A DNA stretch of 64,000 nt from an uncultured Planctomycetales bacterium. Lineage in GTDB: Bacteria > Omnitrophota > Gorgyraeia > Zapsychrales > JBDRMG01. The stretch covers positions 43,351-107,350 of the forward strand of contig CAYZIY010000004.1 in assembly GCA_964478715.1 (NCBI GenBank). The letters run 5' to 3'. The notes below the pieces were generated by a model. That model saw only the letters and a program-made list of their open reading frames with translations. It had not been told where the DNA came from and did no database searches. The position numbers were made by a program, and so were the translations under genes. Shown in pieces: positions 5,821 to 60,023 of this stretch (positions are counted from its first letter, which is position 1; the number at the start of each line of letters is the position of its first letter).

Positions 5821-6003
5821 TTACCTAAGGTTTAACTTTACCGTTTTATAAAAAAACCCATATTCGACTCGCGAATATGGGCTATAAATTTCCAATCAAA
5901 AAAATTAGAACTATTTATACAATAGTATAAACATTTATTCCGTGGTTTTACATAATTAATTGTCATTCCGTGGCTTCCCTTCCTGTTGGCCAGACAGTAC
6001 GGG

Positions 6004-12176: not shown

Positions 12177-12455
12177 TCAATAATGAATCATGTTAAGCTT
12201 TTCAAACTCGTAAAAAATGGGATTGGTCTGCTTCATGGGTCCTTCATCACCTTCAAGAAGGCCCCAGTCTTCCTCGATCCCCTGGGTCAATTGATCATCG
12301 TGAGATTTCCGGCCGCTGGCCAAGCTAGCCCCGGCCCAGCGAAAAGCCATCACGCAGGCATAAATTAAAATAAGAACGATGATAAAGCTGAAGGTGAATT
12401 CGATCATCACTTGAGCTTTTCCTGTTTTGATTTTTGCTTTCAAAGACAATAACAT
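12177..12455 (-). CDS. tadE: TadE-like minor pilin / pseudopilin.
   Basis: 92 aa; …KTGKAQVMIEFTFSFIIVLILIYACVMAF… has the Flp/TadE leader with E at +5 followed by a TM helix. Confidence 0.6.
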   Translation of the reverse strand: MLLSLKAKIKTGKAQVMIEFTFSFIIVLILIYACVMAFRWAGASLASGRKSHDDQLTQGIEEDWGLLEGDEGPMKQTNPIFYEFEKLNMIHY

Positions 12456-12467
12456 TAATCCTCATCC

Positions 12468-13910
12468 TTATTGAATCGGCATTTGGTCATCACTGACATC
12501 GACCGTCCATCTGTGACCGCCGCGATCCTCGATCCGGCTGCGGATATAAAAAACTTTTTGCTCTTCATCGAAGCAGTTTTTAAACATATTGGCATCACTG
12601 AGACAGTCATTACAGGATTCCACATAGGGATTGACCTTATAATTAGGAACACCCTCACCTACGTCCCAACTTTTCCCCGTCCCATTGCCGCACAGGCGCC
12701 CGGTATCATTACTGAGCTGAAATTTGCGCTCAATCAAAGACAACCGGTCGGTCATGCGGGTGTTGCGCACCACCTGGCCGCCGGCCGCAACTAATTTTCC
12801 CTCTTCAATGCGCAGCAGTGTCCCGTCGCGGGTTTCGGTATAGATTCTGGTCTCATCCATCAGGCCCGGCTTTTTCTGATCCGTTCCCCCGGGTTCAGCC
12901 GGTGTCGGCCCTCCCACATAGTCATAGGTATTATAGGTTTGATCATAATCGCCTTCCTGCATATCCAAAACCCAGGCATATTTGACGATCCCTGAACCTT
13001 CACACCCGTATATTGAAGAAGGAGAAGAGGAATACTGCCACGGGGCTGTCGTATTAAACTGAGCCTGATTAGTGTCTTCCAGGCCGAACACTTTTTCTTC
13101 TTTCAGGTCTCCGTCGACATCGTAACTCAGCGTAGCGCCTTCCTCAATAAGAAAATTCTCTGTCAGGCCTGGAACCTTGCGCCATTGCCAGGCCATTCGA
13201 TTGGGATACATGACATCGCCGTCTCTATAAATGAATCCCCCATAATGTATTGTTTCTCCTGTTGCGCCGTTGCGATTATAATCAAATCTTTCTGTGTCGT
13301 TTGAATCCCAGTCCGCGCTCACTCCTGCCGGCCCGGGAATTTTCGTATAAAAAACAGGACAATCGAAGCCCGCGCATTCCCCGGCTTCCATCGAATCGGG
13401 AACAAAGACAGAATCCGGATGTTCCGTGCACTGGCCTTCATCATCCGCAAAACAATAAATCCGATAGGCGGCCACGCTTAAAGGGAAATGCTCGCCGTTA
13501 ACATATAAATCCATCACCGGCACTTCGTCATCCTTTCCGAATTCCGCCGGCATCATCAATTTGTTGGTCATACTGCCGCCGCCGCCAAACACATAAGCGC
13601 TGCGGGCTTCGGGACCGTATTTGCCGCTGCTGCCGGTCACATCAACATCCTTGCGGTCCTCGATCACCAGAACGCTGGCCATGATGCGGGAGGAATTCTC
13701 TGCCTTCCCGGAAGAATCAAGCTGCCAGGAAGAATGAAAAGACTTTGTTAAAGCCAGGCGCGTCGCTTTCATCCAGTGGTTTTGCACATTATTGCTGTGG
13801 CTGGCGTAGCGGATCAACAGCCCCAGCATAAAAAGCAAAATCACGCCGAAAGCGGCGAGTTCGGTGGCGGTTTGGGCTGATAATAATTTACGTTTTTTTC
13901 GATTTCTCAT
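12468..13910 (-). CDS. TadF-like pseudopilin with a large (about 430 aa) C-terminal extension.
   Basis: The N-terminus KRKLLSAQTATELAAFGVILLFMLGLLI has a TadE/F-type leader. The C-terminal region is Gly/Asp/Tyr-rich with scattered Cys. It lies immediately downstream of the Flp array. Confidence 0.55.
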   Translation of the reverse strand: MRNRKKRKLLSAQTATELAAFGVILLFMLGLLIRYASHSNNVQNHWMKATRLALTKSFHSSWQLDSSGKAENSSRIMASVLVIEDRKDVDVTGSSGKYGPEARSAYVFGGGGSMTNKLMMPAEFGKDDEVPVMDLYVNGEHFPLSVAAYRIYCFADDEGQCTEHPDSVFVPDSMEAGECAGFDCPVFYTKIPGPAGVSADWDSNDTERFDYNRNGATGETIHYGGFIYRDGDVMYPNRMAWQWRKVPGLTENFLIEEGATLSYDVDGDLKEEKVFGLEDTNQAQFNTTAPWQYSSSPSSIYGCEGSGIVKYAWVLDMQEGDYDQTYNTYDYVGGPTPAEPGGTDQKKPGLMDETRIYTETRDGTLLRIEEGKLVAAGGQVVRNTRMTDRLSLIERKFQLSNDTGRLCGNGTGKSWDVGEGVPNYKVNPYVESCNDCLSDANMFKNCFDEEQKVFYIRSRIEDRGGHRWTVDVSDDQMPIQ

Positions 13911-13929
13911 GATATCTAACTAAAGCGTG

Positions 13930-14241
13930 TCAATAATTCGGGACATTGGTCTGGCCTGTTTTTGTTTCGGTGGCATAGGCCGAGTCTTTCTTTTTCGACC
14001 AGTAGCTTCCAGCTTCCTCCTGAATCGACAATTCGGACACACTGTTTCCGACAGTGGTAAAAGTGATGTTGCTCACCGCGACCGTCGGATCGTATTGATC
14101 GCCGAAATTATCTATCTGCCCTCTCCAGCGACCCTGAATCCCGCGCTTGATATAAATGGTCATGGCCAGCAGAGCGCCGGCCACGACAATGATAAGAATC
14201 GAATATTCAAGCGTTGACTGGGCTTTTCGTATGCATTTCAT
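13930..14241 (-). CDS. flp: Flp-family pilin paralog 7 (103 aa).
   Basis: MKCIRKAQSTLEYSILIIVVAGALLAMTIYIKRG: prepilin motif A/QSTLEY plus a hydrophobic helix. RBS AAGAGG is upstream. Confidence 0.65.
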   Translation of the reverse strand: MKCIRKAQSTLEYSILIIVVAGALLAMTIYIKRGIQGRWRGQIDNFGDQYDPTVAVSNITFTTVGNSVSELSIQEEAGSYWSKKKDSAYATETKTGQTNVPNY

Positions 14242-14281
14242 TTTATCTAACCTCTTACTTGCGCGGCTTATCTCTTTCGCG

Positions 14282-14632
14282 TTAATACGTGCGGTTCGTT
14301 AATCCCATATTCACGATCGAAGAGCTTTCTTCTTCGGAAGAATCTCCGTAAATATAATCGATCGCGCCCCCCGGGCTTTGCAATAATTGTTTCCCCTGAG
14401 TATAACGGACAGCGGAATAGCTCTCTTCAATATAGCCGCTGGTTTCATCGATCTGCTGTTCGGCGCATTGCTGAATGCCGACCTGATCCGATGCCATTTT
14501 GATGGTCGCCTGGACACTGCGCATCAGAAAAGGGCGCATTAAAATTAAAAAGGAACCCACCACGCCGGCCACCAGAAGATATTCCATCAAGGATTGGGCT
14601 CTGTTATTAAAATGTCTCGATATTTTTCTCAT
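14282..14632 (-). CDS. flp: Flp-family pilin paralog 6. Start refined to the internal ATG at 14632; the track ORF is extended upstream with no pilin context.
   Basis: MRKISRHFNNRAQSLMEYLLVAGVVGSFLILMRPF from the ATG at 14630-14632. The leader is A/QSLMEY. Confidence 0.55.
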   Translation of the reverse strand: MRKISRHFNNRAQSLMEYLLVAGVVGSFLILMRPFLMRSVQATIKMASDQVGIQQCAEQQIDETSGYIEESYSAVRYTQGKQLLQSPGGAIDYIYGDSSEEESSSIVNMGLTNRTY

Positions 14633-14633
14633 A

Positions 14634-15005
14634 TTAATCGGCCTCACCGGGCGGCGCTGTTTCTCCCTCGGATATGACGGAAGTCGTGTCTGTGTCCGCG
14701 CCCTCATACTCTTGTCCTGTAGCCAGCGGAAACAATTGATCGATATCTTGGGTTTGCTGTTTGATCTCGCGAGTGGAATTAACATAATACGGCTCGTACT
14801 GATCAACGAAATCACCCGCGGATCCGGAAACATAAAAAGCGGTTTTGGCATCGGCGAAGGAGCGGTCATGGGCTCCTTTCATCGCCGCCATGAAACCGCG
14901 CTGGACATAGACGCTTATTCCTGTAATCGCGGCCACGACCAAAGCCAGCAAAATCGCCTGTTCGCTGATAATCTGAGCCTTTGTTTTCTTAATTCCTTTA
15001 AACAT
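14634..15005 (-). CDS. flp: Flp-family pilin paralog 5 (123 aa).
   Basis: MFKGIKKTKAQIISEQAILLALVVAAITGISVYVQRG; the C-terminal tail is acidic and Thr-rich. Confidence 0.6.
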   Translation of the reverse strand: MFKGIKKTKAQIISEQAILLALVVAAITGISVYVQRGFMAAMKGAHDRSFADAKTAFYVSGSAGDFVDQYEPYYVNSTREIKQQTQDIDQLFPLATGQEYEGADTDTTSVISEGETAPPGEAD

Positions 15006-15171
15006 TCTACGCCTTATTTATATTAAAGCTTGTTGATAATTGAAGTCAACATTTAATACTAATATTAATAATTCTGAAAGAAACTGCCGAAAAAACTGGC
15101 CTGCCACAATATCTTCCTCCCGGCAGGCCAGTTCTTCTCATTCTTTGATCAACGTGTACTCGACAAACTGA

Positions 15172-15504
15172 TTACTCTGTCTCCGATCCCCAGTATTCCT
15201 GCTGGACATTGATGAGATTAGCCGAATAAGTGACATTCGTCCATTCATCATCCAGAAGCCGGGATTCTGTTTGTCCGTCTATTGTAGTTTCGTTGGAATG
15301 GGTTTGAGTCGTCGTTGATCGGTAGTATCTGGTATTGCCAGGAGAAAACTGATCACCGATATCATCAGTGGCCTGGCGGTAACGTCCCTGAACACCTCGT
15401 TTAATATACATTTGCATAGAGAGCAAAGCACCTAAGACGACAATAATCAAGATGGCGTATTCTAAAGTGCTCTGCGCCTTTTTATTCCGTAAGAATCTTA
15501 ACAT
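15172..15504 (-). CDS. flp: Flp-family pilin paralog 4 (110 aa).
   Basis: MLRFLRNKKAQSTLEYAILIIVVLGALLSMQMYIKRG. RBS GGGAGGTG lies 8 nt upstream of the ATG (plus-strand 15510-15520). Confidence 0.65.
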   Translation of the reverse strand: MLRFLRNKKAQSTLEYAILIIVVLGALLSMQMYIKRGVQGRYRQATDDIGDQFSPGNTRYYRSTTTQTHSNETTIDGQTESRLLDDEWTNVTYSANLINVQQEYWGSETE

Positions 15505-15560
15505 GATTTTATTTCACCTCCCTAAATAAAATATATCAACACAGATCATCTGCTGTCGGC

Positions 15561-15896
15561 TTAATTGCCATTGACATCCGTGGTCAATGTATAACCGTCA
15601 CTGGCTCTTTTAGTATAAGTTGTTTCACCCACTTCTGTTTTATCCGCATCATAATCCTGATACTGAGTAGCATTGCGTTCCTGTTCGTATACTTTCACAT
15701 GATAATAGGGCTCGTATTGCGTAGTTGCGCTGCCCATTTCTGTTGACATTTCGTCTGTCTTGCCTTTAACACCGGCATTGATCGCGCGGGTCACATAGAC
15801 CTGCATCCCGGTGATCGCGCCGACGACAAGGGCGATGAGAATGGCGTATTCCGCCGTGGACTGCCCTTTGATTTTCTTTTTCAACTTAATTAACAT
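15561..15896 (-). CDS. flp: Flp-family pilin paralog 3. Start refined to the ATG at 15894-15896; the track start at 15905 is a GTG inside the RBS.
   Basis: MLIKLKKKIKGQSTAEYAILIALVVGAITGMQVY: canonical G/QSTAEY. RBS AGGAGGTG (15903-15910) lies 6 nt before the ATG. Confidence 0.65.
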   Translation of the reverse strand: MLIKLKKKIKGQSTAEYAILIALVVGAITGMQVYVTRAINAGVKGKTDEMSTEMGSATTQYEPYYHVKVYEQERNATQYQDYDADKTEVGETTYTKRASDGYTLTTDVNGN

Positions 15897-15945
15897 TGAT
15901 TTCACCTCCTATGAAAAACCATAACAACATTCATTAGCTTTTTGA

Positions 15946-16152
15946 TTACGTACCGTTCTTAGGCGACAAGGGCCGCGAACCGGCCAAACGATTGGCCATG
16001 GTCGACATACCATTAGCTGTTGACCCAACGGTATTCTCCAGAGCACTTTGGAATAATCCGCCTTCAACCATAACACCAATAATCACAATCACAACGCCCG
16101 TAATCAAGATAACGTATTCCAGCGTACTTTGTCCTTTTCTCTTTTTTCTCAT
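15946..16152 (-). CDS. flp: Flp-family pilin paralog 2. Start refined to MRKKRKGQ…
   Basis: MRKKRKGQSTLEYVILITGVVIVIIGVMV. RBS GGAGGTG (plus-strand 16160-16166) lies 9 nt upstream. Confidence 0.65.
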   Translation of the reverse strand: MRKKRKGQSTLEYVILITGVVIVIIGVMVEGGLFQSALENTVGSTANGMSTMANRLAGSRPLSPKNGT

Positions 16153-16210
16153 TTTAGTTTTCACCTCCTGCAAAGTCGTCTTGATAACCCTGATTACTCA
16201 GGGATGAATG

Positions 16211-16805: not shown

Positions 16806-19199
16806 TTATCCTGAGTGACATTTGAAAAATATTTTTTTGCCCCGGGAAATTCTAATATCGCGCTCATTGATTCGTCTGATCGCATATTTAAGGTCTTGCG
16901 CATAGCCATAATTCTCAGGTATAATTAGAGTCACAATGGTTAGATCTCCGGATTCTTGCAAAGAACCCTCAAGGTCATAAAAACGCTCCTTGATGGTTGA
17001 AAAATCCAGCGTTTGACAGGAATCAGGAAAGAAATGTCTCTGACAGTAGTGATTCAGGGCTGACAACAGGAATTCGATGATAGTCCAGAGATCAGTCCAT
17101 CCCCCCAAAAGATTATATTGCCCTATGCCGCTGAAAAGAGGAACTCTCTCTGGCGAAGGAGCCATCATAAAATCCTTAAATGAGGGCCTCTCCACTTTTG
17201 ATCCAAAGTCTTCAAATCCTTCCTTAAAATTCGGCCAATGCAAAATATAATGACTAATGACATCTTGAATGGACATATTTTTTTCTGTGCTGTTCGTAAC
17301 AATGGCTATATTTGGAAAATCATTATCCTTTTCGCGAATAAAAGCAATTCTGAGTTTTATTTTTTGTCCAATCAGAGGCTGATCTATAAAATCGGTTATT
17401 TGGGAATAAATAAATTCCCTTTCTAATCCTTCTATGAAAATTCTCTCCTGGGTTCCCGTGTCTTTGCTGATGTATTTCTTGAACCCTTCCTGCCATGGCC
17501 ATGCTCCGGCAATGAAGCTTCTTTTCTTCTTAGGAACAGTTTTGAACTGAGCTATTAGATCTTTTTGTCCATTGTGAATGCTAACACTGGATATTGTTTT
17601 TTGAGAAATGTTTTCAAAAGCCCAGACAAATTCAAAGAATTCTTTGGAGAAATCATTATATCCGGGAATATTTTGTAAGACGCAAGGATAATTATTGCTG
17701 ATAAAACGTTTTGAAATAATTTCAAGCGCTTTATCAAAACTCTGACAAAATCCAGAATGGACAGTATTTTCATCCCAGATGCTATGACATTGTGTATCAA
17801 TACATAAAACTGTCCCGTCACTCAACTGCAGTTTAATATAGCTCGCCTCGGAAAAGACTTGGCTATATTCATTGGACATTTCCAGAGAGAGATTCCTTGG
17901 ATTATTGATATTCTCAACAAAATGAAGAAGATTTTCAGCTTCAATAGGCTTTTCAAGAGAATTCAAAACCCATAATCCTTTGCCTTTGTAATTCATGATT
18001 TCTTGAGTCTTATCCATACCAAAGGCACGCATATAAAGAATAATTTCGCTGGCCAGATTGACATCCGAAGCGGAAACAGAGCTGTATTTGCTTAGGAGTC
18101 CTCCTAAAATCGAATACGGAGATAAATCATTTTCGGCCGCCTTAAGAAAGAAAAAGCCCATATGATCAAACAACGCTTCTTTGGGAGTTAAGGAAACAAT
18201 TTCTCTGTCAAATACTGGTTCTTCTTCTGTCACAGGTTCCTGTTCTTGTGCCTGATCTTCGGGTAGAGGTTCTTTCTGCTGTCGATCTAACTCTTCCTCG
18301 GATTCTTCCGGAGAATCTTCCCGAGGTTCTTGTTTAGGTTTTTCTGGAGGCTCTTCTTGCACGCAAGAACCTTCGCCTTTTTGTAAGGATTCTTTTGTTT
18401 CCCGCTTTGAACCTTGTTCTGCTTCCCGGGTGAGTTCTTCTTTTTCTTGTTTCGGGATATCTTCGGATTCCAGGGGATCCGCTTCTCCTTTTTGGTTTGA
18501 TTCTTTTTTCTCTTGCGTTGGAGATTCCTCCAATAAAGAATGCTTTTCGTTTTGATCTTGCTGGACAAAGGGATATTTCAATATCTTATCATGCTCATCA
18601 GTCTTTTCTTCTTCCTTTTTTTCTTGATCATTTTCATTTCTGGACATTTCTTTTACAATATTTTCTTCTATATCCTCTTTGGACAATTCCTCTTTCTCAT
18701 GTGACCCCATTTTATCTCTGGACATTGCTTTATTATCAATATCCACCCTTTGCGGCCTCTGGACTGCTAATTCTTCCGGAGGCGTGGGCAATTCTTGCGG
18801 AAGAGCGATAGGTTTAACATCTTTGGATGTTTTTTCATGAATCATCTCACTCTGATTTTCTTTTTGAAGAGCATAATCTTTTTTTATCTCAGGCAAATGC
18901 TCATCCTGGCGATCTGCTTCAATCAATTTTGTTTCTTTGTTTTTCTCAAAAATTTCTTGCTTCTTTTCTTCCGGGATTTTGAAAGTGTCTTTCGATTTTC
19001 GGCTTTTTGATCTGCGGCCAACCGGAGAACTCAAATTGGACTCTTTTAAAACACTGTTGACTGAAGATTTTGAAACCGGAATCGAAAACTGAATTTGAAT
19101 AAGATCTGATATTTTACGGCAGCTTAGTTTGGGATTGGATTTCTTTTTTTCAATAATGAAATCAACAACTTCTTTTTTCAGCTTGTGGATGACACCCAT
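16806..19199 (-). CDS. Hypothetical 797-aa protein with an N-terminal helix-turn-helix, a long Glu/Lys-rich low-complexity linker and a conserved-looking C-terminal domain of about 450 aa.
   Basis: N-terminus …VDFIIEKKKSNPKLSCRKISDLIQIQFSIPVSKSSVNSVLKE (HTH_23/resolvase-like HTH). Residues about 60-330 are EK/QE-rich (EEKKQEIFEKNKETK…, PEESEEELDRQQKEP…). The C-terminal half is of mixed composition with no motif I recognise. It lies between the two tad operons. Confidence 0.6.
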   Translation of the reverse strand: MGVIHKLKKEVVDFIIEKKKSNPKLSCRKISDLIQIQFSIPVSKSSVNSVLKESNLSSPVGRRSKSRKSKDTFKIPEEKKQEIFEKNKETKLIEADRQDEHLPEIKKDYALQKENQSEMIHEKTSKDVKPIALPQELPTPPEELAVQRPQRVDIDNKAMSRDKMGSHEKEELSKEDIEENIVKEMSRNENDQEKKEEEKTDEHDKILKYPFVQQDQNEKHSLLEESPTQEKKESNQKGEADPLESEDIPKQEKEELTREAEQGSKRETKESLQKGEGSCVQEEPPEKPKQEPREDSPEESEEELDRQQKEPLPEDQAQEQEPVTEEEPVFDREIVSLTPKEALFDHMGFFFLKAAENDLSPYSILGGLLSKYSSVSASDVNLASEIILYMRAFGMDKTQEIMNYKGKGLWVLNSLEKPIEAENLLHFVENINNPRNLSLEMSNEYSQVFSEASYIKLQLSDGTVLCIDTQCHSIWDENTVHSGFCQSFDKALEIISKRFISNNYPCVLQNIPGYNDFSKEFFEFVWAFENISQKTISSVSIHNGQKDLIAQFKTVPKKKRSFIAGAWPWQEGFKKYISKDTGTQERIFIEGLEREFIYSQITDFIDQPLIGQKIKLRIAFIREKDNDFPNIAIVTNSTEKNMSIQDVISHYILHWPNFKEGFEDFGSKVERPSFKDFMMAPSPERVPLFSGIGQYNLLGGWTDLWTIIEFLLSALNHYCQRHFFPDSCQTLDFSTIKERFYDLEGSLQESGDLTIVTLIIPENYGYAQDLKYAIRRINERDIRISRGKKIFFKCHSG

Positions 19200-19823: not shown

Positions 19824-20168
19824 TTAGGGTTTTAATGCGAGCTGGTCGCCGCATTCTGTTTGCGTTGCGTCGATGACGCCCACGGGCAGCTCGATCACAT
19901 ACGAGGCTTTAAAGAAAATCGGACTCACGCGGAAGGGTTTTATCTTTCTGCACAGGCCCGCCACACGATGATCAGAATCAGCAAAAACCGCATCAATAGC
20001 AAATTTCATAAAAAACATGTGGATGCTGTTACAGTTTTCGATCAAAAGGGCCTGATTTGCGCGGATCGTTTTCCGATTCAAAAGACCGGTCATTCGTTGA
20101 ACAAAAGATTTGGCGATTTGCACATCGTCCGCCAGGAGTGTCGATTTGTCTTGATTGATAATGACCAT
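19824..20168 (-). CDS. DUF192 (COG1430) family protein.
   Basis: 114 aa; …ADDVQIAKSFVQRMTGLLNRKTIRANQALLIENCNSIHMFFMKFAIDAVFADSDHRV… matches the DUF192 pattern (R.GLM.R..L…GMLF.F…MKN..IPLDI.F.D). It is the last gene of the cpaB-secretin-cpaEF operon. Confidence 0.55.
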   Translation of the reverse strand: MVIINQDKSTLLADDVQIAKSFVQRMTGLLNRKTIRANQALLIENCNSIHMFFMKFAIDAVFADSDHRVAGLCRKIKPFRVSPIFFKASYVIELPVGVIDATQTECGDQLALKP

Positions 20169-22340: not shown

Positions 22341-24047
22341 CTATTGATCTAATCGGTAAACAATCGGTATGCTCAGGGTCAGCTCTGAAAAACCGCTTTT
22401 TTTCGGAAAGCCGTCATAAGGAGAAAGCTCTTTGACAAGGTTCAAAGCATCCTGATCGAATAATTCATGTCCGGAGGACTCCTGAACGCGAACAGTGCTT
22501 AAAGAACCGTCTCTTTTGAGGTGCAGGGACAATTTGACGGTTCCGCTCAAGCCCAATTCTCGAGCTTGGGACGGATAAATAATTCTACGGGCAATTTTTC
22601 TCTGAACTGCCCGGGCATAAGGCATCAATTCGCTGGGGATGGTCACAGAGTAAACCGGTTGCTCCATACCCGATATTCCCCGGGGGGTCATTACTTTTTT
22701 CCCGCTCTGCGGTAAAACAGCCTGAACAGGTCTAATCCGCCCAGGCATCATGATTTCCTCTCCCTTGGCGTACACAGGAGGTTCCAGGCGTTCATCCAGA
22801 AGACTTAGATTAAGAGGATATTCATTGGAATAAGATTCTCTCTCACCCTGACGTAGAATGCTGGGGGATATTGTAATAACGAGCTCGGTATCCGTGTCAT
22901 TCGAGCGGGTCTTTTTGCGAAACAGTAAACCCACAACAGGAATATCGCTTAAGAAAGGCACTCTTTCAAGAGTCTCGCCACGATTTTCTTTAATCAAACC
23001 AGCAATCACAATGGTTTCATTTTCTTTCACGTAAAGGCTGGTCTCTGTGTTGCGGGTTGTAAAAGCGGGCTGCCCGCTGTAATTGGTAGATCGGTCAATG
23101 TCACTGACTTCGATGTTAAGATTCAGTTCGATCGCATCCTTACCGTAAATGGTCGGCTGGATATCGATACCCACCCCGTAATCCTTAAAGGTCACATCCT
23201 GCTGAGAGGCACCGCTCGATGAAATCGATGTGGTCACAATAGGAACCTCGCCGCCGACCAGGAAATTGGCATCGCGGCCGCTGCGCACCACCAGCTTGGG
23301 GCGCGACAAAACCCGGGCCTTGCCTTCGTTGACCAAAGCGTTTAGCGTGGTTTGGATCGCGGTCGAACGGGCAAAATCTCCGAGCTTAAAGATATTGCCG
23401 AAATTCTCGATATGACCCGAAGGCACCGTCTCGTTGTAGGTGAGAGCATCGGTCCAGTCGATACCGAGTGTCTCGCTGTATGTTCCCGTGAGCTCGGTTA
23501 TTTGCGCGTCGATCTGCACCAGATCGTTCGTACTCTCTTGCTTGACCAAATTCATCACCACCATAAAAAACGGATCGATGATGCGTTCAAATTCCAACAA
23601 ATCTGTTGGGGAAACCTCTCCGGTGGCAATGATCTTGCCTTCCTTGCGGTCAATCTCCAAATCAATGCCCTTGAGATTGTCTTTCTCCATCAAATTCTCA
23701 ATACGTGTTTTCACCGAACCCAATTCGCGGTCGGCCACATGGATATCAATAGTCCGCTTCCCGTAGCGATCCCAAATGTAAAGTGTGGTATCGCCGGCGT
23801 TTCGGCCGATAATGAGAATTTTATCATCTTCCATTTCGACGATATCGATGACGCCCGGAATCGTGATAGAAACGCGAAAAAGTTCATAAGCCCGGATGTT
23901 TTCTAAGTCTCCCCGGGTCAGATAAACTTCATCGTCCATCAACTCGGTAAAAGTAAAAGCCTGGGCGCTGCGATGAAAAACAAATACACTGCCCGTCGCT
24001 AGAAGAATCAAAATGCCGATCGTTAAGACTGTTTTATTTTTAAACAT
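22341..24047 (-). CDS. cpaC: Tad secretin CpaC/RcpA with a fused C-terminal TonB_C domain.
   Basis: Signal peptide MFKNKTVLTIGILILLATGSVFVF. Secretin core …PKLVVRSGRDANFLVGGEVPIVTTSISSSGASQQDVTFKDYGVGIDIQP…. The C-terminal about 95 aa …RIIYPSQARELGLSGTVKLSLHLKRDGSLSTVRVQESSGHELFDQDALNLVKELSPYDGFP… matches the TonB C-terminal consensus (YP..A…G.eG.V.v.f.I..dG.v…v..SSG…LD.aAl). Confidence 0.8.
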   Translation of the reverse strand: MFKNKTVLTIGILILLATGSVFVFHRSAQAFTFTELMDDEVYLTRGDLENIRAYELFRVSITIPGVIDIVEMEDDKILIIGRNAGDTTLYIWDRYGKRTIDIHVADRELGSVKTRIENLMEKDNLKGIDLEIDRKEGKIIATGEVSPTDLLEFERIIDPFFMVVMNLVKQESTNDLVQIDAQITELTGTYSETLGIDWTDALTYNETVPSGHIENFGNIFKLGDFARSTAIQTTLNALVNEGKARVLSRPKLVVRSGRDANFLVGGEVPIVTTSISSSGASQQDVTFKDYGVGIDIQPTIYGKDAIELNLNIEVSDIDRSTNYSGQPAFTTRNTETSLYVKENETIVIAGLIKENRGETLERVPFLSDIPVVGLLFRKKTRSNDTDTELVITISPSILRQGERESYSNEYPLNLSLLDERLEPPVYAKGEEIMMPGRIRPVQAVLPQSGKKVMTPRGISGMEQPVYSVTIPSELMPYARAVQRKIARRIIYPSQARELGLSGTVKLSLHLKRDGSLSTVRVQESSGHELFDQDALNLVKELSPYDGFPKKSGFSELTLSIPIVYRLDQ

Positions 24048-24069: not shown

Positions 24070-24906
24070 TTATCTTAACCCCTGAAAAATACTATCCTCA
24101 TAAAGTTCAATCGTTGACGGCTTGGGCCGGGGCCGTTTATCGCTAACGTCTTCTTCGAAGTCGACCTCATCGGGATCCTGGTAACCAATGTCCAGCCCTT
24201 GCGCATTATTGACATAATTCGAAAATGCCTCCCAGTCGCTGGGCGGCAAAATATAAGCACGCGAATCTACCGAGGAGCGCATAAAAAGCTGAAGCTTGCC
24301 GTTTTTGGAAGCAAAAGTCAAAAGACCAGCTTCCTGCGGATCCATGGCGAAGGTAATTACCATCTGATTACCGCTGGTCTTGGGCTTTCCGCTGATTACC
24401 CCGTCAACAGCTAATACCAAAGCATTTTGAAAAAGCGTAAAAGACATTAAATCCTTCTTGGAAGGATTGTAAGGATCGGTGGGAACATAAACATGAGAAA
24501 CAATATCCACTCTGTCTCCCGGCATCACCAAGCCGCCGACGGCAGCCAGGCGATCAACCATTACGGTCACAGCCCGCATGCCCTGCGGGGTAACGGCCGC
24601 CAAAGATTCGGCTGAAGCCATAACGGGCTTTCCCGCCCCGGAATCGATTTGCTTGAGACGATTGTCGAGATTGCGCAATTGATGCGCCAGATCATGATCA
24701 TTTTGTTCCAGCATGCGAAATTGCTCGGCCAGCCTGGCCGCTTCTTTCTCGCGGAAAATGGTGGCAAACTTTTCCGTTTTCTGACCAACGGTGGAATTGA
24801 TATAAATATTCGTTAAAATCACCGCCGCGAAAGCGGTCGCGACCGCCACAATTCCCAAAACCAGCTTCTTTTTATCCAATGTTTTAAAATCAATAGCCAT
24901 GAGCAC
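24070..24906 (-). CDS. cpaB: Flp pilus assembly protein CpaB/RcpC.
   Basis: N-terminal TM LVLGIVAVATAFAAVILTNIYI. Central …GMRAVTVMVDRLAAVGGLVMPGDRVDIVSHV… is typical of the CpaB SAF-like domain. It lies directly upstream of the secretin. Confidence 0.75.
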   Translation of the reverse strand: MLMAIDFKTLDKKKLVLGIVAVATAFAAVILTNIYINSTVGQKTEKFATIFREKEAARLAEQFRMLEQNDHDLAHQLRNLDNRLKQIDSGAGKPVMASAESLAAVTPQGMRAVTVMVDRLAAVGGLVMPGDRVDIVSHVYVPTDPYNPSKKDLMSFTLFQNALVLAVDGVISGKPKTSGNQMVITFAMDPQEAGLLTFASKNGKLQLFMRSSVDSRAYILPPSDWEAFSNYVNNAQGLDIGYQDPDEVDFEEDVSDKRPRPKPSTIELYEDSIFQGLR

Positions 24907-24914: not shown

Positions 24915-25871
24915 TTATTCGAGCAGGTCTTCATTCGTTTTAACCTCGATCTCTTCTTCCAATTTATTAACATAATTCAAAACGGCCTGTTGCTGCCTTT
25001 CAAGGGTCAGCTGGTCGATCAACCAGTCTTTGACTTCTGAAAACGGCTGCGGCTCTCCACCCCGTTTTTCTTCGAGTTTAATAATCGTATATCCTTTGGG
25101 GCCTTTGAACACACTGCTGAGCATCCCTTCTTCAAGGGTTAATAGCGCAACCATTAATTTCTCATCGGTGATGTCGGCTTCATTCACATAGCCGAGATCT
25201 CCGCCTTCAGCGGCCGAGTCGCTGATCGAACGCTCCCGGGCCAGCGCGGCAAAGTCGGCGCTTTGCAAAAGCTGGATACTGATCTCATTGGCACCCTGCT
25301 GGGTGGCGGTCACAATTTCGCGGATCTTGTATTCGGTGGGTTCGGTGAAAAAATCCTTGTTTTCATTATAAAATTCACGGGCTTCAAGTTCCGAAACATC
25401 AATTTCCTCAGTAATTTTGGTGATCACTTCCTGGACCAGAAGCGTTCTTTTAAATTCGTCAATCGCCTCCTGAATCCGCGGATCATCGGCTACGCCGCTG
25501 CGCTTGGCATCTTGAACAAACATCTCCTGGCGAATCAATTCCTGAAGGATCAGTCTTTTATTTTCCGCGCTTGCAACATCAGCATCGGGCAAAAGCTCTT
25601 TGATGGCATCGAGCCGTTCATTAAATTCTCGGAGGCTGATCGTCCAGCTGCCCACTTTAGCCAGGGTGTCGGGCCCCATCACAGTCTCTTTGGGCTGATC
25701 AGGCTGATCACCGGCAGCCGGCGCTTTATCATCTGCGTTTTTCTTTAATGAAGGAAAGAAGTCTTCTAAAAATGTCAGCTTATCACAACCGCTTAGCGTC
25801 AAGGAAACCGCAAAAAAACAAATGACCAATGAAGAGATGAAAAATTTCTTTATAGTTTGACCGGATTTCAT
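24915..25871 (-). CDS. SurA/PrsA-like lipoprotein with a PpiC-type (parvulin) peptidyl-prolyl isomerase domain.
   Basis: Lipobox LTLSGC. The parvulin region is …SADFAALARERSISDSAAEGGDLGYVNEADITDEKLMVALLTLEEGMLSSVFKGPKGYTIIKLEEK…. Confidence 0.65.
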   Translation of the reverse strand: MKSGQTIKKFFISSLVICFFAVSLTLSGCDKLTFLEDFFPSLKKNADDKAPAAGDQPDQPKETVMGPDTLAKVGSWTISLREFNERLDAIKELLPDADVASAENKRLILQELIRQEMFVQDAKRSGVADDPRIQEAIDEFKRTLLVQEVITKITEEIDVSELEAREFYNENKDFFTEPTEYKIREIVTATQQGANEISIQLLQSADFAALARERSISDSAAEGGDLGYVNEADITDEKLMVALLTLEEGMLSSVFKGPKGYTIIKLEEKRGGEPQPFSEVKDWLIDQLTLERQQQAVLNYVNKLEEEIEVKTNEDLLE

Positions 25872-25979: not shown

Positions 25980-26222
25980 TTAAGCAGGCCGAAGAGGACA
26001 ATTACTGCAATTCTCGCCGGGGCCGCAGCCATCCCCCAGGCAATCGTCAGGACAATTCACGCAGGTCTCACCCGGCTCGCAGCCATTACCCGGACAGCTA
26101 CATTTGATGCCCCAGCAATCGACTAAACAACTCGCGCCGTCTTCATCTTCTTCGCAAACCCAGTTCCCGCATGTTCCTCCTGCTCCATCATGAGGAAGAC
26201 AGCGCCTAAAAAACGCACACAA
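25980..26222 (-). pseudogene. Out-of-frame 3' module of the upstream Cys-rich pilin-fusion paralog. It is homologous to the in-frame C-terminal module of the 469-aa paralog.
   Basis: MCAFFRRCLPHDGAGGTCGNWVCEEDEDGASCLVDCWGIKC…CLGDGCGPGENCSNC aligns with GFPHDGEYGTCGNWVCDPGEDCENCIVDCWGVACNC…CLGDGCGPGENCGNC of 27338..28747. It has no leader peptide of its own and sits 8 nt past the stop of 26231..27298 in a different frame. Confidence 0.45.
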
Positions 26223-26230: not shown

Positions 26231-27298
26231 TTATTTGAGGCAGTTACAATTTTTATAATTAGAATTTACGCAAGTATTATAAGACATATTATCGCTAAAC
26301 GTACATATGGTACGATTATCAAATCTTTTGACACACTTTTTCCAATAATAGCTAACGTACAATTTTGTGCATCTATTATCATCAAGGCAATTACTTTTGT
26401 TTCGGCTAGAGCAAGGTGTGGGCTGTGGTCCTTGTGGGGATTGCTTGCAGACAAAAGGGCAAGGGTCAGTCTTACACATTCCAAGAGCATCACAACATTT
26501 TGTCACGCCTCTTTCCCAAATACATCCACGGTCTACGCAATCTTCTTGGTCGAAGAGACATCCACAGTCACATTCGCAGCACTCCCCTACTTCATCGCAT
26601 TCAGGTGAGCAAATCAAGTCTCCACACCGTCCGCAGTCCTGGCAACAGTTGTACGCATCTTCCCCATCTTCACATACACCGTTAGGACATTGCGGCACAA
26701 TGCAATCTCCACTTAAATTAGTAGGCTCCGCCGGAGTTCCCGGCGGCCAGGGAGGGTTGGCCGGGTCAATGCTGGCTGTGTCCACATTATAACTATCTTC
26801 GCCATTGTCCACGCAGCATAAACCATCATCAGCTTCCCAGCAGTTATCCGCGCAGCAGGTATATTTATCCTCTCCGCAAGCCGCGTCGCAAACCCCGTCA
26901 ATCACACAGTTGCTGGCACAACAGTCCTGAGCGCACCATTTTGCGCTGGTGCGATCGTCTTCGTCTAACCCGGAACAACATACATCGCAGGGATTACCGT
27001 ATTGATCCACTCCACAGCCGTCATTGCAGTCTTCACAGCAGTATTCATCCGTGCTGCAGTCATCTTCGATACCGGGAGAGCATACTCCGTCACCGCAAAC
27101 ATCTTGAGGGGTTAATCCAGGATTTCCCGGTTTTTTGATCGGACCTTTGATGGAATCTTCACTGGCATAATCGAAATTTTTTAACAGGGCATTGATGGAG
27201 CGGATCAGGTAAGGGCCCATCAGGATGGCACCGGCCATCACCAGGGTGATGACGGTTGAAAATTCAAGGATAGACTGGGCTTTTTTTCCGTGGCTCAT
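26231..27298 (-). CDS. Flp/TadE-type prepilin leader fused to a large Cys-rich extracellular domain (paralog A, 355 aa, apparently frameshift-truncated).
   Basis: N-terminus MSHGKKAQSILEFSTVITLVMAGAILMGPYLIRSINALLKN (A/QSILEF leader plus TM), then DDCSTDEYCCEDCNDGCG…CCADNCWEADDGLCCVDNGED…PANPPWPPGTPAEP…. Roughly 20% of residues are Cys. Confidence 0.6.
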   Translation of the reverse strand: MSHGKKAQSILEFSTVITLVMAGAILMGPYLIRSINALLKNFDYASEDSIKGPIKKPGNPGLTPQDVCGDGVCSPGIEDDCSTDEYCCEDCNDGCGVDQYGNPCDVCCSGLDEDDRTSAKWCAQDCCASNCVIDGVCDAACGEDKYTCCADNCWEADDGLCCVDNGEDSYNVDTASIDPANPPWPPGTPAEPTNLSGDCIVPQCPNGVCEDGEDAYNCCQDCGRCGDLICSPECDEVGECCECDCGCLFDQEDCVDRGCIWERGVTKCCDALGMCKTDPCPFVCKQSPQGPQPTPCSSRNKSNCLDDNRCTKLYVSYYWKKCVKRFDNRTICTFSDNMSYNTCVNSNYKNCNCLK

Positions 27299-27337: not shown

Positions 27338-28747
27338 TCACCAATGCACAACGCATTCCCCGCAATCTTGGGGGCAGGTCGTGCAGCCTTCACCGTGATC
27401 ACTGCGGCAATCCCCGTCTCCGCAGCAATCGGTGCAGTCTTCAGGGCAGGTGAAACAAGTTTCAGCATTTTCGGATCTGCAATCCCCATCGCCGCAACAA
27501 GGATAGTCAATATTTCCATAATTACAGTCTTGCGGGCAATTTCCGCAATTCTCGCCGGGGCCGCAGCCGTCTCCCAGGCAATCTTTAGAACAATTCACGC
27601 AGGTCTCGCCCAGCTCACAGATATCATTCCCACAGTTGCATGCTACGCCCCAGCAGTCTACAATACAATTCTCGCAATCCTCTCCTGGGTCGCAAACCCA
27701 ATTTCCGCAGGTTCCGTATTCCCCGTCATGAGGAAAACCGCACTTTGCAGAAAAACCGCCATGGGGATTAGCCATGCTAGTTACAAGCTGCCCATTTTCA
27801 CACCGCCAATCACCCATGCCCGGCCACGGCCCCTCTTGCACCCAAGTGGCATTACATTCCTCATAAGCTTGATTGCTATAAAGCTTATTTTTCTTAAGGC
27901 ATATTTGTGGAGGGCAACAGTAACTATCATTGGCACAGGTGTTTGTTACACCCACATCACAAAATTTAAACGTTCCATCATCATTAAGCTCAAACGGGTA
28001 TTCGCACCCATCAAACCAATTATGGTAAGGGTTTATAGTATCTCTGCCAGGGTTAACACACACTTTCCCATAAGAACGTTGTTGGCATTTTCCACAGCAG
28101 CAATCATCACTTGTTTCACAGGTCTCCCATTCTACCACGCAACCCAATGGACAATCATCACTTTGATCGGCAGGCTCCGCCGGAGTTCCCGGCGGCCAGG
28201 GAGGGTTGGCCGGGTCAATGTCGGCTGTGTTCTCATTATAACTATCTTCGCCATTGTCCACGCAGCATAAACCATCATCAGCTTCCCAGCAGTTATCCGC
28301 GCAGCAGGTATATTTATCCTCTCCGCAAGCCGCGTCGCAAACCCTGTCAATCACACAGTTGCTGGAACAACAGTCTTCGGGGCACCAGCTCAAGCTGGTA
28401 CGATCGTCTTCATCTAACTCATGACAACAGGTCGGAGAAGCCTCTCCTTCGGCATTGATTCCGCACCAATCACAGTCTTCGCAACAGTAATCTTCGCTGT
28501 CAGGATTGTCTTCTATCCCTCCGACGCATATTTCATCGCCGCAGACATACTCGGGTGGAATAAATTCATCGCTCCCCGGTTTTTTGAGGGGGCCCTTAAT
28601 GGCTTCTTCGGTGGCGATGTCGTAATTCTTTAACAGGGCATTGATGGAGCGAATCAGGTAGGGGCCCATCAGGATGGCACCGGCCATCACCAGGGTGATA
28701 ACGGTCGAGAATTCAAGGATAGACTGGGCTTTTTTTCCGTGGCTCAT
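27338..28747 (-). CDS. Flp/TadE-type prepilin leader fused to a large Cys-rich extracellular domain (paralog B, 469 aa, intact).
   Basis: The first 41 aa are identical to paralog A. It shares about 215 bp that are near-identical at the nucleotide level (28166-28380 versus 26727-26940) and ends with the GTCGNWVC…CGPGENCGNCPQDC…CGDGDCRSDHGEGCTTCPQDCGEC module. Confidence 0.65.
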   Translation of the reverse strand: MSHGKKAQSILEFSTVITLVMAGAILMGPYLIRSINALLKNYDIATEEAIKGPLKKPGSDEFIPPEYVCGDEICVGGIEDNPDSEDYCCEDCDWCGINAEGEASPTCCHELDEDDRTSLSWCPEDCCSSNCVIDRVCDAACGEDKYTCCADNCWEADDGLCCVDNGEDSYNENTADIDPANPPWPPGTPAEPADQSDDCPLGCVVEWETCETSDDCCCGKCQQRSYGKVCVNPGRDTINPYHNWFDGCEYPFELNDDGTFKFCDVGVTNTCANDSYCCPPQICLKKNKLYSNQAYEECNATWVQEGPWPGMGDWRCENGQLVTSMANPHGGFSAKCGFPHDGEYGTCGNWVCDPGEDCENCIVDCWGVACNCGNDICELGETCVNCSKDCLGDGCGPGENCGNCPQDCNYGNIDYPCCGDGDCRSENAETCFTCPEDCTDCCGDGDCRSDHGEGCTTCPQDCGECVVHW

Positions 28748-28856: not shown

Positions 28857-29222
28857 TTAAAATAATGAATCGACCTCCCGGATCAGCTTATCGCTTTCGA
28901 CGGGCTTAATCAAGACTTTATCGAACCCAAAATGAAGCATTTTCTGGGCTTGATTCTTAGAGAGAACTCCGGTCATCATGATCACCTTTGTATTTTTTAA
29001 ACTCTTGCTGGCTTTCAACTTTTGACAAAAATCGATTCCGCTTTCTTCATCTAGAAGGTAATAATCGACAAGCACAACATCCGGTTTATGCGCTTTGCAA
29101 ATGGTCCACGCCCCGGACACTTTTGAAGCGCAAAATACTTCCCAACCCGCTTCACTGAGAATTTCCGCAAAGCCTTTACGAATCGATTCCTCATCATCGA
29201 CAATTAAAATACTTTTGTTCAT
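28857..29222 (-). CDS. Single-domain response regulator (CheY-like receiver).
   Basis: SILIVDDEESIRKGFAEILSEAGWEVF…KPDVVLVDYYLLDEESGIDFCQKLK…VIMMTG. Confidence 0.75.
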   Translation of the reverse strand: MNKSILIVDDEESIRKGFAEILSEAGWEVFCASKVSGAWTICKAHKPDVVLVDYYLLDEESGIDFCQKLKASKSLKNTKVIMMTGVLSKNQAQKMLHFGFDKVLIKPVESDKLIREVDSLF

Positions 29223-29244
29223 TTTTGACCCGATGTCAACGACC

Positions 29245-32200
29245 TTAAGCCGCCTTTTTTAAGAAAAGCGGCAAAGTAATGATAAAGGTGCTCCCTTTGC
29301 CCCAAACGCTTTTGGCTTTGATCTGACCGCCGTGCTCCCGAATAATTCCCTGGCAAATAAAAAGGCCCAGCCCGGTTCCGCTTTTCTTTTTCGTCGTAAA
29401 AAAAGGATCGAAAATCTGATCCAGATGTTCTTTTTTGATTCCCTCTCCATTATCCTGAATGGTCAAGACGATCCGGTCTTCTTCTTGATCCGTTTTAACG
29501 AGAATCTCTCCCCGCTTGCCTTTCATGCTGTCTGCCGCGTTTAAGATAAGATTCAGCAGAACCTGATGTATTTGCTGCGGCCGGCATTCGATGGCGGGCA
29601 AAGGAGAAGCCCTCTCCGTTTTCAGTTTGATATTTTTGAGCCTCAGCTGGTGCTCAACCAGCTTCATTATTTTCTCAATAAGCTCATTAAGGTCAACCTG
29701 TGATTGTTTTTGATCAGGGGTTTTGTAAATATCCAATAATCTGGAAACAATCGATCGAATTTTCTCAATGTTGGCTTTAACCAAATCGTAATTTTTCTGT
29801 TTCTGATAATTTTTCGGCAAACCGGAGCGCATAATTTCCAGATGCGTCAAAATTCCCTGAAGGGGATTATTGATCTCATGGGCAATACTGGCCGAAAGCC
29901 GGCCCGTGGCGGCCAGGCGTTCGGACTGCCTGAGCTCGCGGGTCCTTTCATCGACCAGCTCTTCTAAATGCTGTCTGTAATTATCCAGCTCCCTTTCCTG
30001 TTTCTTTCTCCGGGTAATGTCTTCGGCAACACCTACCAGGCCGATAATCCGGCCCTGATCATCGCAGAGGGGAACCTTGATCGTGTGCAAAACATGCGCC
30101 CGGCCGTCCAGGGCCCTAAAGGGTTCTTCCGCAATATCCTGACGTTTTCCCGATTCGATCACCTTATGATCCACGAAAGCGGAGAAAGCTTTCTGTTCAT
30201 CGGGTCCGGCAGGACTTTTTTCAGTCAGCAAATTAATGAATTTTTCCGGTGCCACCCCGTAGTCGTTAGCCATTTTCTTATTAACCAGTAAAAATCGTGA
30301 CTTTTTATCTTTAACAAAAACCCATAGCGGCAGGTTATCAAAAACAGTCCGTAAAAGCGTCTCGCTGCGGCGCAGTGCCTCTTCGGCCTCTTTACGCTCG
30401 GTAATATCCCGAACACTGGCCCGATATCCCAGGATGGAGCCTCGATGATCCCTGACGGGCTGAGCGGAAATGGAGAGATAAAGGGAGTACCCGGCTTTGT
30501 TTTTGATCCGGAATTCTTCATCATTGATGATGTCACCCATCAGATATTTTTTGTAAAATTTCTCAACTTTTTCCTTATATTCGGGATAAACCAATTGACG
30601 CAAATCGATACGGCCCGAGTAGAAATCTTTAATCTCATATCCGGTAATCCTCTCCGCGGCCGGATTTATATACGCAATATTTTTTTCTTTATCACGATAC
30701 AATTCCCAGTCGTGGGTATAATCAAAAAACATTCGGAATTTGGCTTCCGAGGCCCGCAGAGCCTCTTCGGCCTTTTTGCGTTCGGTAATATCGATAGCCA
30801 ATTCAAATCGTACATCTCTTCCGTCAGGCCATTTGATAATCCGGTCAAAAATCATATAGTGTTTCTGGAGTTTCCGGTTATAGTATTCCCACTGATAAGT
30901 TTGGTTTCTATTTTTCAAAATGATTCTATTGGTGCAAAAAGGACAGGGTTTATCTAAACCCTGAAAAATGCGGTAACAGATTTTTCCTATCGGATTTTCC
31001 TGAAATGTTTCTTTGAGGAATTTATTAACAAAAAGAATTTTGTCGGTTTTGGGATCTGTTACATAAACGATTTCATTGATGCTGTCAAAAATGGACAACA
31101 ATTGAGCGCGTTCAAACGCGAGGGCTTTCTGCAATCTTTCGCTTTCCGTTATATCGCAGATAATCGTCAAAACGGCAACGACTTTATTTTTCCGGTAAAC
31201 AGGGATTTTTCTGGTCTCTGTCGTGAAACTGCGATTATTTAATGTTGATTTCTCCTGGGTGACAAGCATCTTGCCGCTCTGAAAAACTTCTCTGTATTCC
31301 CGCTTGATTTTTTTGGGCAAAAATGAAAAAACCTCGAAAACATATTTTCCAACAATATTTGCAGGCAGCCCTAACCGTTTATTCCAGCGGATGAATTCCT
31401 GATTGATTAACTGAATCCGCAAATTCTTGTCAACAACATGCACCGCGTCCAGCATGGCATCGATCGTCATCCGGTATTGCTGCTCCGATTCTCTTAACTT
31501 ATCTTCGGTTTCTTTTCTTTCAATGGCGCTGGCGAAAATATCGCCGGCAATTTGGAGGATAGCCACGACTTCATCTGACCAGTCTCTTTCTTTTAGCACG
31601 GAATCAAACCCGACAAAACCCAGAATCCGGTTTTCGGCCTTCATGGGCACGCAGAGCAATGACTGAATAGAAGCTCGTTGAAATTCTCTTTTTTCAGAGG
31701 AGGCCTGAGCCGGCAAGTCTTTCACCCGCAGAAGATTAACCACTTGATTGCCTTTAATTCGCTTAATGAACCAGGGAAAAGATTTGAGAGGTATATTCTG
31801 GAGCCTGGCCTTTTGAGAAGCGATTTCGCGGGCACACCATTCACTGGTATTATTCATAATATTTTGATCATCCGAAAAAAGAAATGTGTAAGCTCGATCA
31901 ACTTGAAGAAAACAGCCAATCTTCCGTAAGGCCTGATTGACCGCTCTGTTTAAATGCCGGGAATCCAAATTGATGAATTTAGCCGAAATAGCTACCAGCA
32001 ATGAATTCAATTTATTCCGGTAATCTGAAAACTGTTCCAGTTTTTTTGCTTCTGTTATATTTCGGGCAATGATCATGGCCGCGGTGATTTTCTCCTGCCG
32101 GTAGACCGGCATACAGCGTGTCGTATAAAAATATCCCTGGCTGTCAGCATATTCGGAATGAATCGTGACTCCCTGTTGAAAGGTCTTTTTAATATCGCGA

Positions 32201-33165: not shown

Positions 33166-33183
33166 GACCTCATTCAGAATGGT

Positions 33184-53893: not shown

Positions 53894-53955
53894 TTTGGTT
53901 GCTCTCCTCCAATGGTCAGCATTTTATCTCGCTTCATAGCGAAACGGCGATCTCA

Positions 53956-56743
<2,788 letters not shown>

Positions 56744-56744
<1 letters not shown>

Positions 56745-57835: not shown

Positions 57836-57993
57836 AGAATTAACAACCCCTTCTGTTATTATTATTCTTTAACAATTTAAAACAAGCAGTAATCATAATA
57901 GTGCTTGTGATATATTTGAATAAAATCTCAAAATATTTGATTTCAGATACTTATGTCAAATTGACTTGTAGAATAAAGCTTAATAATATTGCT

Positions 57994-60021: not shown

Positions 60022-60023
60022 TT

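Follow-up and report, generated by a model that had tools for sequence, protein, structure and literature searches.

Why does the outer-membrane channel of a Tad pilus end in the C-terminal domain of TonB, and what might such a domain do there? The question is raised by a gene in a 64-kb stretch of Omnitrophota DNA (contig CAYZIY010000004.1; hereafter the window, meaning the whole stretch that was analysed). Its open reading frame (ORF), 22341..24047 on the minus strand, starts with ATG and encodes 568 amino acids (aa). A first-pass annotation, made from the sequence alone, had described the product as a secretin of the CpaC/RcpA type whose final ~95 aa fit the TonB C-terminal consensus, and the peptide it quoted is present in this ORF. 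We find that the fusion is genuine and recurs throughout the phylum. The answer we favour is that the added domain acts passively, as a flexibly tethered module for docking or anchoring, a reading to which we assign a probability of about 0.5.

A TonB C-terminal domain on a Tad secretin

The Pfam Secretin model (PF00263) matches residues 237-399 of the protein (E 5.4e-44; 150.2 bits against a cut-off of 27.5), and T2SS-T3SS_pil_N (PF13629), which is present in nearly all homologs, matches residues 43-104 (28.8 bits; cut-off 23). At the other end, TonB_C (PF03544) matches residues 490-566 over profile positions 4-79 of 79 (E 1.6e-14; 54.6 bits against 24.6), the NCBIfam model tonB_Cterm (TIGR01352) reaches 50.1 bits (cut-off 27.1), and TonB_2 (PF13103) matches residues 476-548 (25.8 bits; cut-off 22). 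The annotation had staked its claim on a significant TonB_C match within about residues 470-568, and the claim stands, with TonB_C matched at residues 490-566 and TIGR01352 above its cut-off. The full-length TolA model (TIGR02794) reaches only 23.2 bits, below its cut-off of 59.45, and neither TolA_C (PF06519) nor AMIN, LysM or OmpA_C matched the secretin in Pfam at E values up to 0.1. Nor did the Pfam scan detect in it the STN domain (PF07660), a small periplasmic module of both secretins and Ton-system proteins (PMC10350073), which is unrelated to TonB_C and N-terminal in TonB-dependent transducers and some secretins.

An AlphaFold2 model of the secretin monomer, built on an alignment of 120 homologs, has a mean predicted local distance difference test score (pLDDT) of 81. 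The last 100 residues superpose on solved TonB C-terminal domains, with a pLDDT of 93-98 across residues 472-566. They comprise a leading helix (472-488), a YP motif (491-492) and a compact alpha/beta domain (493-564) that includes an SSG motif (524-526) and the last strand (555-564). Sequence searches of the PDB returned secretins (8jvb, E 5e-35; RcpA 8odn, E 5.6e-27) and the C-terminal domain of Helicobacter pylori TonB (E 9e-6). When the model was compared with the PDB by Foldseek, secretins ranked first, RcpA 8odn among them, and TonB C-terminal domains came next: H. pylori 6sly (template modelling score, TM-score, 0.78) and 5lw8, FusB 7zc8 and HasB 2m2k. TonB bound to TbpA (9dc4_T) or FoxA (6i97_D), each with a root-mean-square deviation of 2.4 Å, and the TsaP-PilQ complex 6ve2 were also matched. 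The assignment of the secretin C-terminus to TonB_C is well beyond chance.

The domain is alike to that of a TonB transducer (6SLY/5LW8, 6I97, 9DC4) in its fold (TM-scores 0.72-0.78), its leading helix and its YP motif, but its setting is different. TonB and TolA have an N-terminal inner-membrane helix with an SHLS motif in the ExbBD or TolQR motor, a periplasm-spanning region and a C-terminal binding domain (PMC12204202). Whereas TonB reaches up from the inner membrane, the secretin domain hangs from an outer-membrane channel and has no link to a motor. The secretin N-terminus is signal-peptide-like, is not conserved in the family, lacks the SHLS spacing and is followed by the secretin domains; the signal peptide call rests on a reading of the sequence and a hydropathy window rather than on a dedicated predictor. 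Judged from its sequence, the protein is not a TonB, despite the product name that NCBI gives to the family, 'TonB family protein'.

Its counterparts are the RcpA/CpaC secretins (RcpA-TadD complex, 8ODN). The pil_N and Secretin domains, together with an operon that includes CpaB/RcpC, a CpaF-type ATPase, TadB, TadC and Flp-type pilins, bear out the assignment to this type. Pseudomonas aeruginosa RcpA has 416 aa, and the last four residues of its unstructured S-domain bind the tetratricopeptide-repeat (TPR) lipoprotein TadD, a contact that is essential for assembly (PMC10499894). In place of this short tail, the window protein has a 70-aa spacer and a TonB_C domain of 95 folded residues. Its locus lacks a TadD gene, and a gene for a lipoprotein peptidyl-prolyl isomerase (PPIase) is always present instead. 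TonB_C is thus foreign to canonical Tad secretins, as the annotation had stated.

Spread and conservation of the fusion

Among the 120 best matches in a search of 5.8 billion proteins with precomputed domains, 119 have both Secretin and TonB_C, and the organism is Candidatus Omnitrophota wherever the source names one. Scanning a single genome for each GTDB species yielded 334 relatives, of which the best 80 form the basis of all locus counts given here; the match extends at least to query residue 547 in these loci, and to residues 564-568 in 79 of them. Many loci are labelled 'uncultured Planctomycetales', one 'Phycisphaerae' and one plainly 'bacterium', with synteny and range of identity alike. 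Surveying related lineages, as the annotation had proposed, we found the fusion almost everywhere: scored with hidden Markov models (HMMs) built from the secretin::TonB_C family itself, 78 of the 79 secretin ORFs carry the domain. In the exception (L064, 856-3166) the secretin and TonB_C parts occupy two overlapping ORFs. Since TonB_C lies in the overlapping ORF a frameshift is suspected, and a frameshift or sequencing error is most likely, not a natural split. Conversely, an assembly or frameshift artefact that joined two genes in the window is ruled out by the recurrence of the same architecture in independent loci and homologs.

Two tandem TonB_C copies are present in seven of the 79 secretins (L005, L007, L009, L022, L042, L047 and L080; proteins P0002 and P0005), with linkers of 78-138 aa. 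Across 78 loci the linker ranges from 20 to 228 aa, being only 20-30 aa long in about 10 of them. It is rich in P, E, K and A, its sequence is not conserved in the alignments, and the longest examples resemble TolA domain II. Disorder, variable length and this composition are as expected for a tether.

Conservation within the folded domain was read from alignments of 36 and 120 sequences, in which any two sequences share only 30-45% identity. G514 does not vary in either alignment; P492, G526, D531 and F547 are invariant in the smaller and at least 90% conserved in the larger; Y477, Y491 and S525 reach at least 90% conservation in each. P561 and Y564 of the last strand are also at least 90% conserved. 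The pattern indicates that TonB_C is under purifying selection, which extends to the YP motif, the SSG motif and the last strand. Because the fusion is present in nearly all homologs and secretin ORFs and is conserved at such low identity, we regard it as old, selected and shared by nearly all Tad systems of Omnitrophota. When only the last 104 residues were searched exhaustively against 1.84 billion cluster representatives, 354 proteins were returned at E ≤1e-10; the best 150 include at least 81 secretin fusions, and many short proteins among them are pieces of such fusions.

The architecture already exists in public, automatically annotated sequences, where it is also named 'cell envelope integrity protein TolA', 'pilus assembly protein CpaC' or 'hypothetical protein'. 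Hundreds of entries named 'TonB family protein' or 'TolA' are pilus secretins that name-based surveys of Tad systems would misfile or miss. We found no published description of a secretin::TonB_C fusion, in a search whose coverage left out most subscription journals and which is therefore not proof. TonB goes unmentioned in the Omnitrophota study that examined the phylogeny of RcpA, a study of TonB and TolA evolution (PMC12204202) mentions neither secretins nor Omnitrophota, and the Myxococcus Kil paper does not describe the fusion. A 2026 preprint lists, beside giant ORFs, 'TonB-domain' genes that it does not recognise as secretins.

Candidate roles and ligands of the secretin TonB_C domain

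We propose that in this outer-membrane secretin of a Tad/Flp (type IVc) pilus, the spacer and TonB_C domain have replaced the short tail. In the assembled ring, which for P. aeruginosa RcpA has 13-14 subunits, the tethered binding domains would form a crown that projects into the periplasm. Each domain would clamp another envelope component, most likely by beta-strand addition, the binding mode of TonB and TolA C-terminal domains (PMC12204202). The secretin would thereby be held or positioned in the envelope, and its assembly might be helped as well. We infer the periplasmic location, the passive anchoring and the binding mode. The module would thereby do the job performed elsewhere by the pilotin-binding S-domain tail of RcpA, the AMIN domains of PilQ and the LysM protein TsaP. 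AMIN domains and TsaP fix type IVa pilus secretins in the envelope, and their wall binding is established; they differ from the secretin TonB_C in fold, and AMIN is N-terminal while TsaP is a separate protein.

Two features of the family bear on where the ligand might lie. The C-terminus of a Tad secretin is an established docking position, since the RcpA tail binds TadD there (PMC10499894), and linkers as short as 20-30 aa imply that the common target is near the outer membrane or wall and not at the inner membrane. Candidates are the C-terminal strand of CpaB, the lipoprotein PPIase, another outer-membrane-proximal protein and peptidoglycan. That the ligand is a protein strand of a Tad or envelope partner is possible, although we would put it below an even chance by a good distance.

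Besides anchoring to peptidoglycan or a periplasmic partner, the annotation had offered energy coupling of the channel. TonB_C would then link the secretin to a motor driven by the proton motive force or bind TonB boxes, gating the channel or competing with TonB. The domain is indeed of the TonB and not the TolA type (PF03544 and TIGR01352 match, PF06519 does not), it retains the YP motif and last strand used in TonB-box pairing, and the NCBI pipeline names it accordingly. However, the secretin has neither a membrane anchor at its N-terminus nor an SHLS motif through which ExbB/ExbD could be engaged. Pfam scanning of 49 window ORFs revealed no ExbB, ExbD, TolQ or TolR and no TonB-dependent receptor (nor a TadD-like TPR pilotin or a prepilin peptidase), and a second TonB_C ORF was not found within 10 kb in the 80 loci. 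Because the domain is tethered from the outer-membrane end, the force of an inner-membrane motor would have no path to it. With no such anchor, no motor genes among the scanned window ORFs and a tether at the outer-membrane end, energy coupling is very unlikely. Anchoring remains the plausible and favoured part of the annotation's proposal, and the module most likely anchors the pore rather than energising it.

Proteins outside the secretins point the same way. Among non-secretins, the TonB_C domains most closely related to this one belong to secreted proteins that have a signal peptide and two to seven TonB_C copies. Four of them (P0262, P0268, P0248 and P0166) have one to six N-terminal copies followed by a TolC-like OEP domain, and two of these four bear Omnitrophota labels: P0268 itself, and P0121 in the P0262 cluster. 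They share with the secretin the TonB_C subfamily, a signal peptide, the lack of an inner-membrane anchor and the role of outer-membrane channel in a trans-envelope machine. They differ in the N-terminal position and number of the copies and in their operons, which at least for P0268 and P0248 are RND (ACR_tran) efflux operons and not pilus operons. A homolog search with P0262 gave only three matches, the repeats probably saturating the word prefilter, and we found no published description of TolC::TonB_C fusions. An ORF of 2200-2300 aa stands next to the TolC::TonB_C gene in both L082 and L083. The module is therefore reused on outer-membrane channels that lack a link to an inner-membrane motor.

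The presence of TonB_C on a second outer-membrane channel, and in tandem, also speaks for a ligand that is not Tad-specific and is perhaps multivalent, as peptidoglycan would be. The domain could accordingly be a cell-wall tether, a special case of anchoring, that binds peptidoglycan or an extended periplasmic polymer directly, with 13-14 copies per ring or tandem repeats providing avidity and fixing channels such as the secretin and TolC to the wall. Its occurrence on two unrelated channel families, at the C-terminus of one and the N-terminus of the other, is a pattern typical of wall-binding modules. The unconstrained length of the secretin linker, as against the fixed-length tail of CpaB, fits a diffuse target layer; the secretin has no AMIN, LysM or OmpA_C domain to do the wall binding; and the peptidoglycan pathway is complete in 176 of 176 complete Omnitrophota genomes (preprint 10.64898/2026.06.07.730766). 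The established ligand of the TonB C-terminal fold is nevertheless a peptide strand. In P0241, four TonB_C copies are joined to an OmpA_C wall-binding domain that would be redundant if the copies themselves bound the wall. Evidence that TonB C-terminal domains bind peptidoglycan is old and weak. In the Ton system, contact with peptidoglycan has been ascribed to another component (Zinke 2024, cited in PMC12204202). On balance a direct wall tether seems unlikely.

A broader version, in which Omnitrophota have repurposed TonB_C as a general, motor-independent tether of both Tad secretins and TolC-like ducts to the wall or to a common periplasmic scaffold, is likewise doubtful. If true, it would amount to an unrecognised outer-membrane attachment system in an ultra-small predatory or parasitic phylum, possibly standing in for Pal, OmpA or Lpp, and the interest of the fusion would grow with it. 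Even so, the range of uses known for the fold is extended by a TonB C-terminal domain that sits on the outer-membrane side without a motor, and by the TolC fusions. Multi-domain TonB_C proteins are known from Bacteroides, including Peptidase_M56 plus TonB_C, tandem TonB_C, and TonB1, 9 and 10 of B. thetaiotaomicron (PMC10350073). They resemble the present proteins (compare P0160, P0216 and P0244) in that TonB_C is mobile, tandem and fused to other domains, but none is joined to an outer-membrane channel, and from their hydrophobic N-terminal segments the Peptidase_M56 fusions appear to be inner-membrane proteins.

Another alternative is pilotin docking, in which TonB_C would capture the PPIase or another lipoprotein so that the secretin monomer is chaperoned to the outer membrane, replacing the pairing of RcpA tail and TadD. 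The canonical pilotin-binding site is formed by the C-terminal residues of RcpA, no TadD-like TPR protein was found in the locus, and a PPIase with a lipobox Cys is encoded two genes upstream of the secretin in all 65 loci with enough flanking DNA. Against this, the N-terminal linker of the PPIase has no conserved short strand, the operons with TolC-borne TonB_C lack such a PPIase, TadD could be encoded elsewhere in the genome, and the benefit of tandem TonB_C copies is not obvious. We therefore consider pilotin docking improbable. TonB_C at the pilotin position of RcpA nonetheless offers a testable handle on how the Tad secretin of Omnitrophota is piloted and held, in a phylum whose Tad pili are the organelle of attachment and have been linked to its predatory or parasitic way of life (PMC10066038).

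TonB_C might instead staple the ring by binding a neighbouring subunit (its N-domain, its barrel wall or another TonB_C), as the helical S-domains do in secretins of type II secretion. S-domains of other secretins do hold the same C-terminal position (PMC10499894), yet contact with a neighbour would call for neither tandem domains nor linkers that reach 228 aa, and the TolC fusions do not fit. Dimeric forms of TonB seen in crystals are stated in PMC3005593 not to exist in vivo. A ring staple is highly improbable.

Several observations weigh against the docking or anchoring module that we prefer. An alignment of PPIase orthologs contains no conserved TonB-box-like segment after the lipid anchor, and a TonB-box-like strand in the PPIase linker was accordingly dropped as a ligand site. 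CpaB orthologs have a disordered tail of 32-52 aa (58 loci) followed by a conserved terminal strand, P-x-I-Q-I-F-R-G-G, which in the window reads STIELYEDS (tail end ...STIELYEDSIFQGLR), and 54 of the 59 ORFs that end in this motif measure 250-350 aa, which matches the CpaB gene immediately upstream of the secretin. The motif is real and confined to CpaB. By its sequence the strand is an element of the strand-addition kind and hence a candidate ligand, but we treat it as a lead only. The lengths of the CpaB tail and of the TonB_C linker do not covary (rho -0.06, p 0.63, n 58). The C-terminus of P. aeruginosa RcpC completes a sheet of the secretin N-domain, not of the C-terminus, the N-domain being the pil_N equivalent that contacts RcpC (PMC12307814). 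The CpaB motif is also absent from the TolC::TonB_C operons, so that CpaB could not be a ligand common to both fusions.

The operon and its surroundings

On the minus strand the operon runs in the order PPIase, CpaB/RcpC, secretin, TadZ-like ParA::CpaF, DUF192 protein, 797-aa protein, pilins, TadB, TadC and a giant ORF (Table 1). Its core, from the PPIase to TadZ::CpaF, is rigid and always on one strand. CpaB lies directly upstream of the secretin in 78 of the 80 loci, and TadZ::CpaF downstream on the same strand in 77.

Table 1. Features of the secretin, its operon and the related TolC fusions. Positions are those of the window unless a locus is named.
Feature	Position	Strand	Basis and remarks
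Signal peptide, residues 1-30	23958..24047	-	Hydrophobic core 4-22, A-Q-A before F31; sequence and hydropathy
N-terminal beta domain (pil_N), residues 40-105	23733..23930	-	Pfam, 28.8 bits; AlphaFold2 strands, pLDDT 96-98
Second periplasmic alpha/beta domain, residues 109-170	23538..23723	-	AlphaFold2 helix 109-122, strands 128-133 and 138-145, helix 147-160, strand 164-170, pLDDT >90; probably N1-like, a label taken from the model in a region without HMM match
Secretin channel domain, residues 176-399	22851..23522	-	Pfam; PDB sequence matches; Foldseek
Disordered linker, residues 400-471	22635..22850	-	pLDDT 36-52, without secondary structure
TonB C-terminal domain with leading helix, residues 472-568	22344..22634	-	Pfam, TIGR01352, AlphaFold2, Foldseek
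SurA/PrsA-like PPIase lipoprotein	24915..25871	-	Pfam Rotamase_2, Rotamase, SurA_N_3; lipobox LSGC, Cys29
CpaB/RcpC	24070..24906	-	RcpC Pfam, 75.5 bits; N-terminal transmembrane helix, RcpC domain, disordered tail, conserved terminal strand
TadZ-like ParA/MinD + CpaF/TadA ATPase, 718 aa	20178..22334	-	Pfam AAA_31/ParA at 4-238, T2SSE at 364-639
DUF192 protein	19824..20168	-	Pfam PF02643, 66.4 bits; 65/80 loci
797-aa protein	16806..19199	-	No Pfam match; 60/80 loci; very acidic, E/K-rich middle
Flp-type pilins and pilin-like proteins	15946-16173, 15561-15905, 15172-15504, 14282-14869, 13930-14241, 12468-13910, 12177-12455	-	N-terminal motif reading
1175-aa protein, predicted N-terminal membrane segments	8622-12149	-	Operon reading
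Further pilin-like protein(s)	8221-8652	-	Operon reading
TadB	7313-8170	-	Pfam T2SSF, 62.3 bits
TadC	6423-7313	-	Pfam T2SSF, 55.6 bits
Giant ORF, >1941 aa, runs off left window end	2-5824	-	Directly downstream of tadC; sole Pfam match Peptidase_C39 at residues 158-282
TolC::TonB_C loci (P0268, P0248; also P0262, P0166)	L082 7735-9744, L083 7415-9424, L084 214-2340		

The PPIase is the first gene of the core, and its lipobox Cys is at least 90% conserved. A lipoprotein PPIase is foreign to canonical Tad loci, and it may be a chaperone or a substitute for a pilotin. TadZ and CpaF are separate proteins in canonical Tad systems; here the TadZ/CpaE-like and CpaF/TadA parts are fused, an arrangement as widely conserved as the position of the gene (77 of 80 loci). 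The 797-aa protein was considered as a periplasmic partner of the secretin and ruled out: it has neither a signal peptide nor a transmembrane segment and is therefore probably cytoplasmic.

The pilin cluster (12177..16173) gave no Pfam matches. Four small ORFs have a Flp-type N-terminus, read from the translations as G/A-Q-S-T-x-E-Y followed by a hydrophobic helix. The small pilins at 15561-15905, 15172-15504 and 13930-14241 have counterparts in 53-55 of the 80 loci, and the one at 15946-16173 in 18. Giant proteins beside pilus cassettes, like the ORF that ends this operon, have been reported for Omnitrophota.

Upstream of the core, two paralogous proteins encoded on the minus strand (26231-27298 and 27338-28747) begin with an identical Flp-like N-terminus of 40 residues (MSHGKKAQSILEFSTVITLVMAGAIL...) and continue into Cys-rich acidic regions. 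Neither has a Pfam match, and from their N-termini they may be large pilin-like subunits; a Cys-rich ORF of 80 aa (25980-26222) adjoins them. Just upstream of the pilus genes, a hybrid histidine kinase of 1306 aa (28857-33792, minus strand) combines a receiver, many PAS and GAF domains, HisKA and HATPase. Two response regulators flank it, one with a single domain and one of the HTH_17 type. The kinase and response regulators may regulate the pilus genes; their homologs are found in only 14-17 of the 80 loci.

At the far end of the window, 51443-63578 contains gyrA, gyrB, dnaN and dnaA on the minus strand and yidC, parA and parB on the plus strand. This gene content identifies the window as chromosomal DNA near the origin, and the GC skew changes sign near 58-60 kb.

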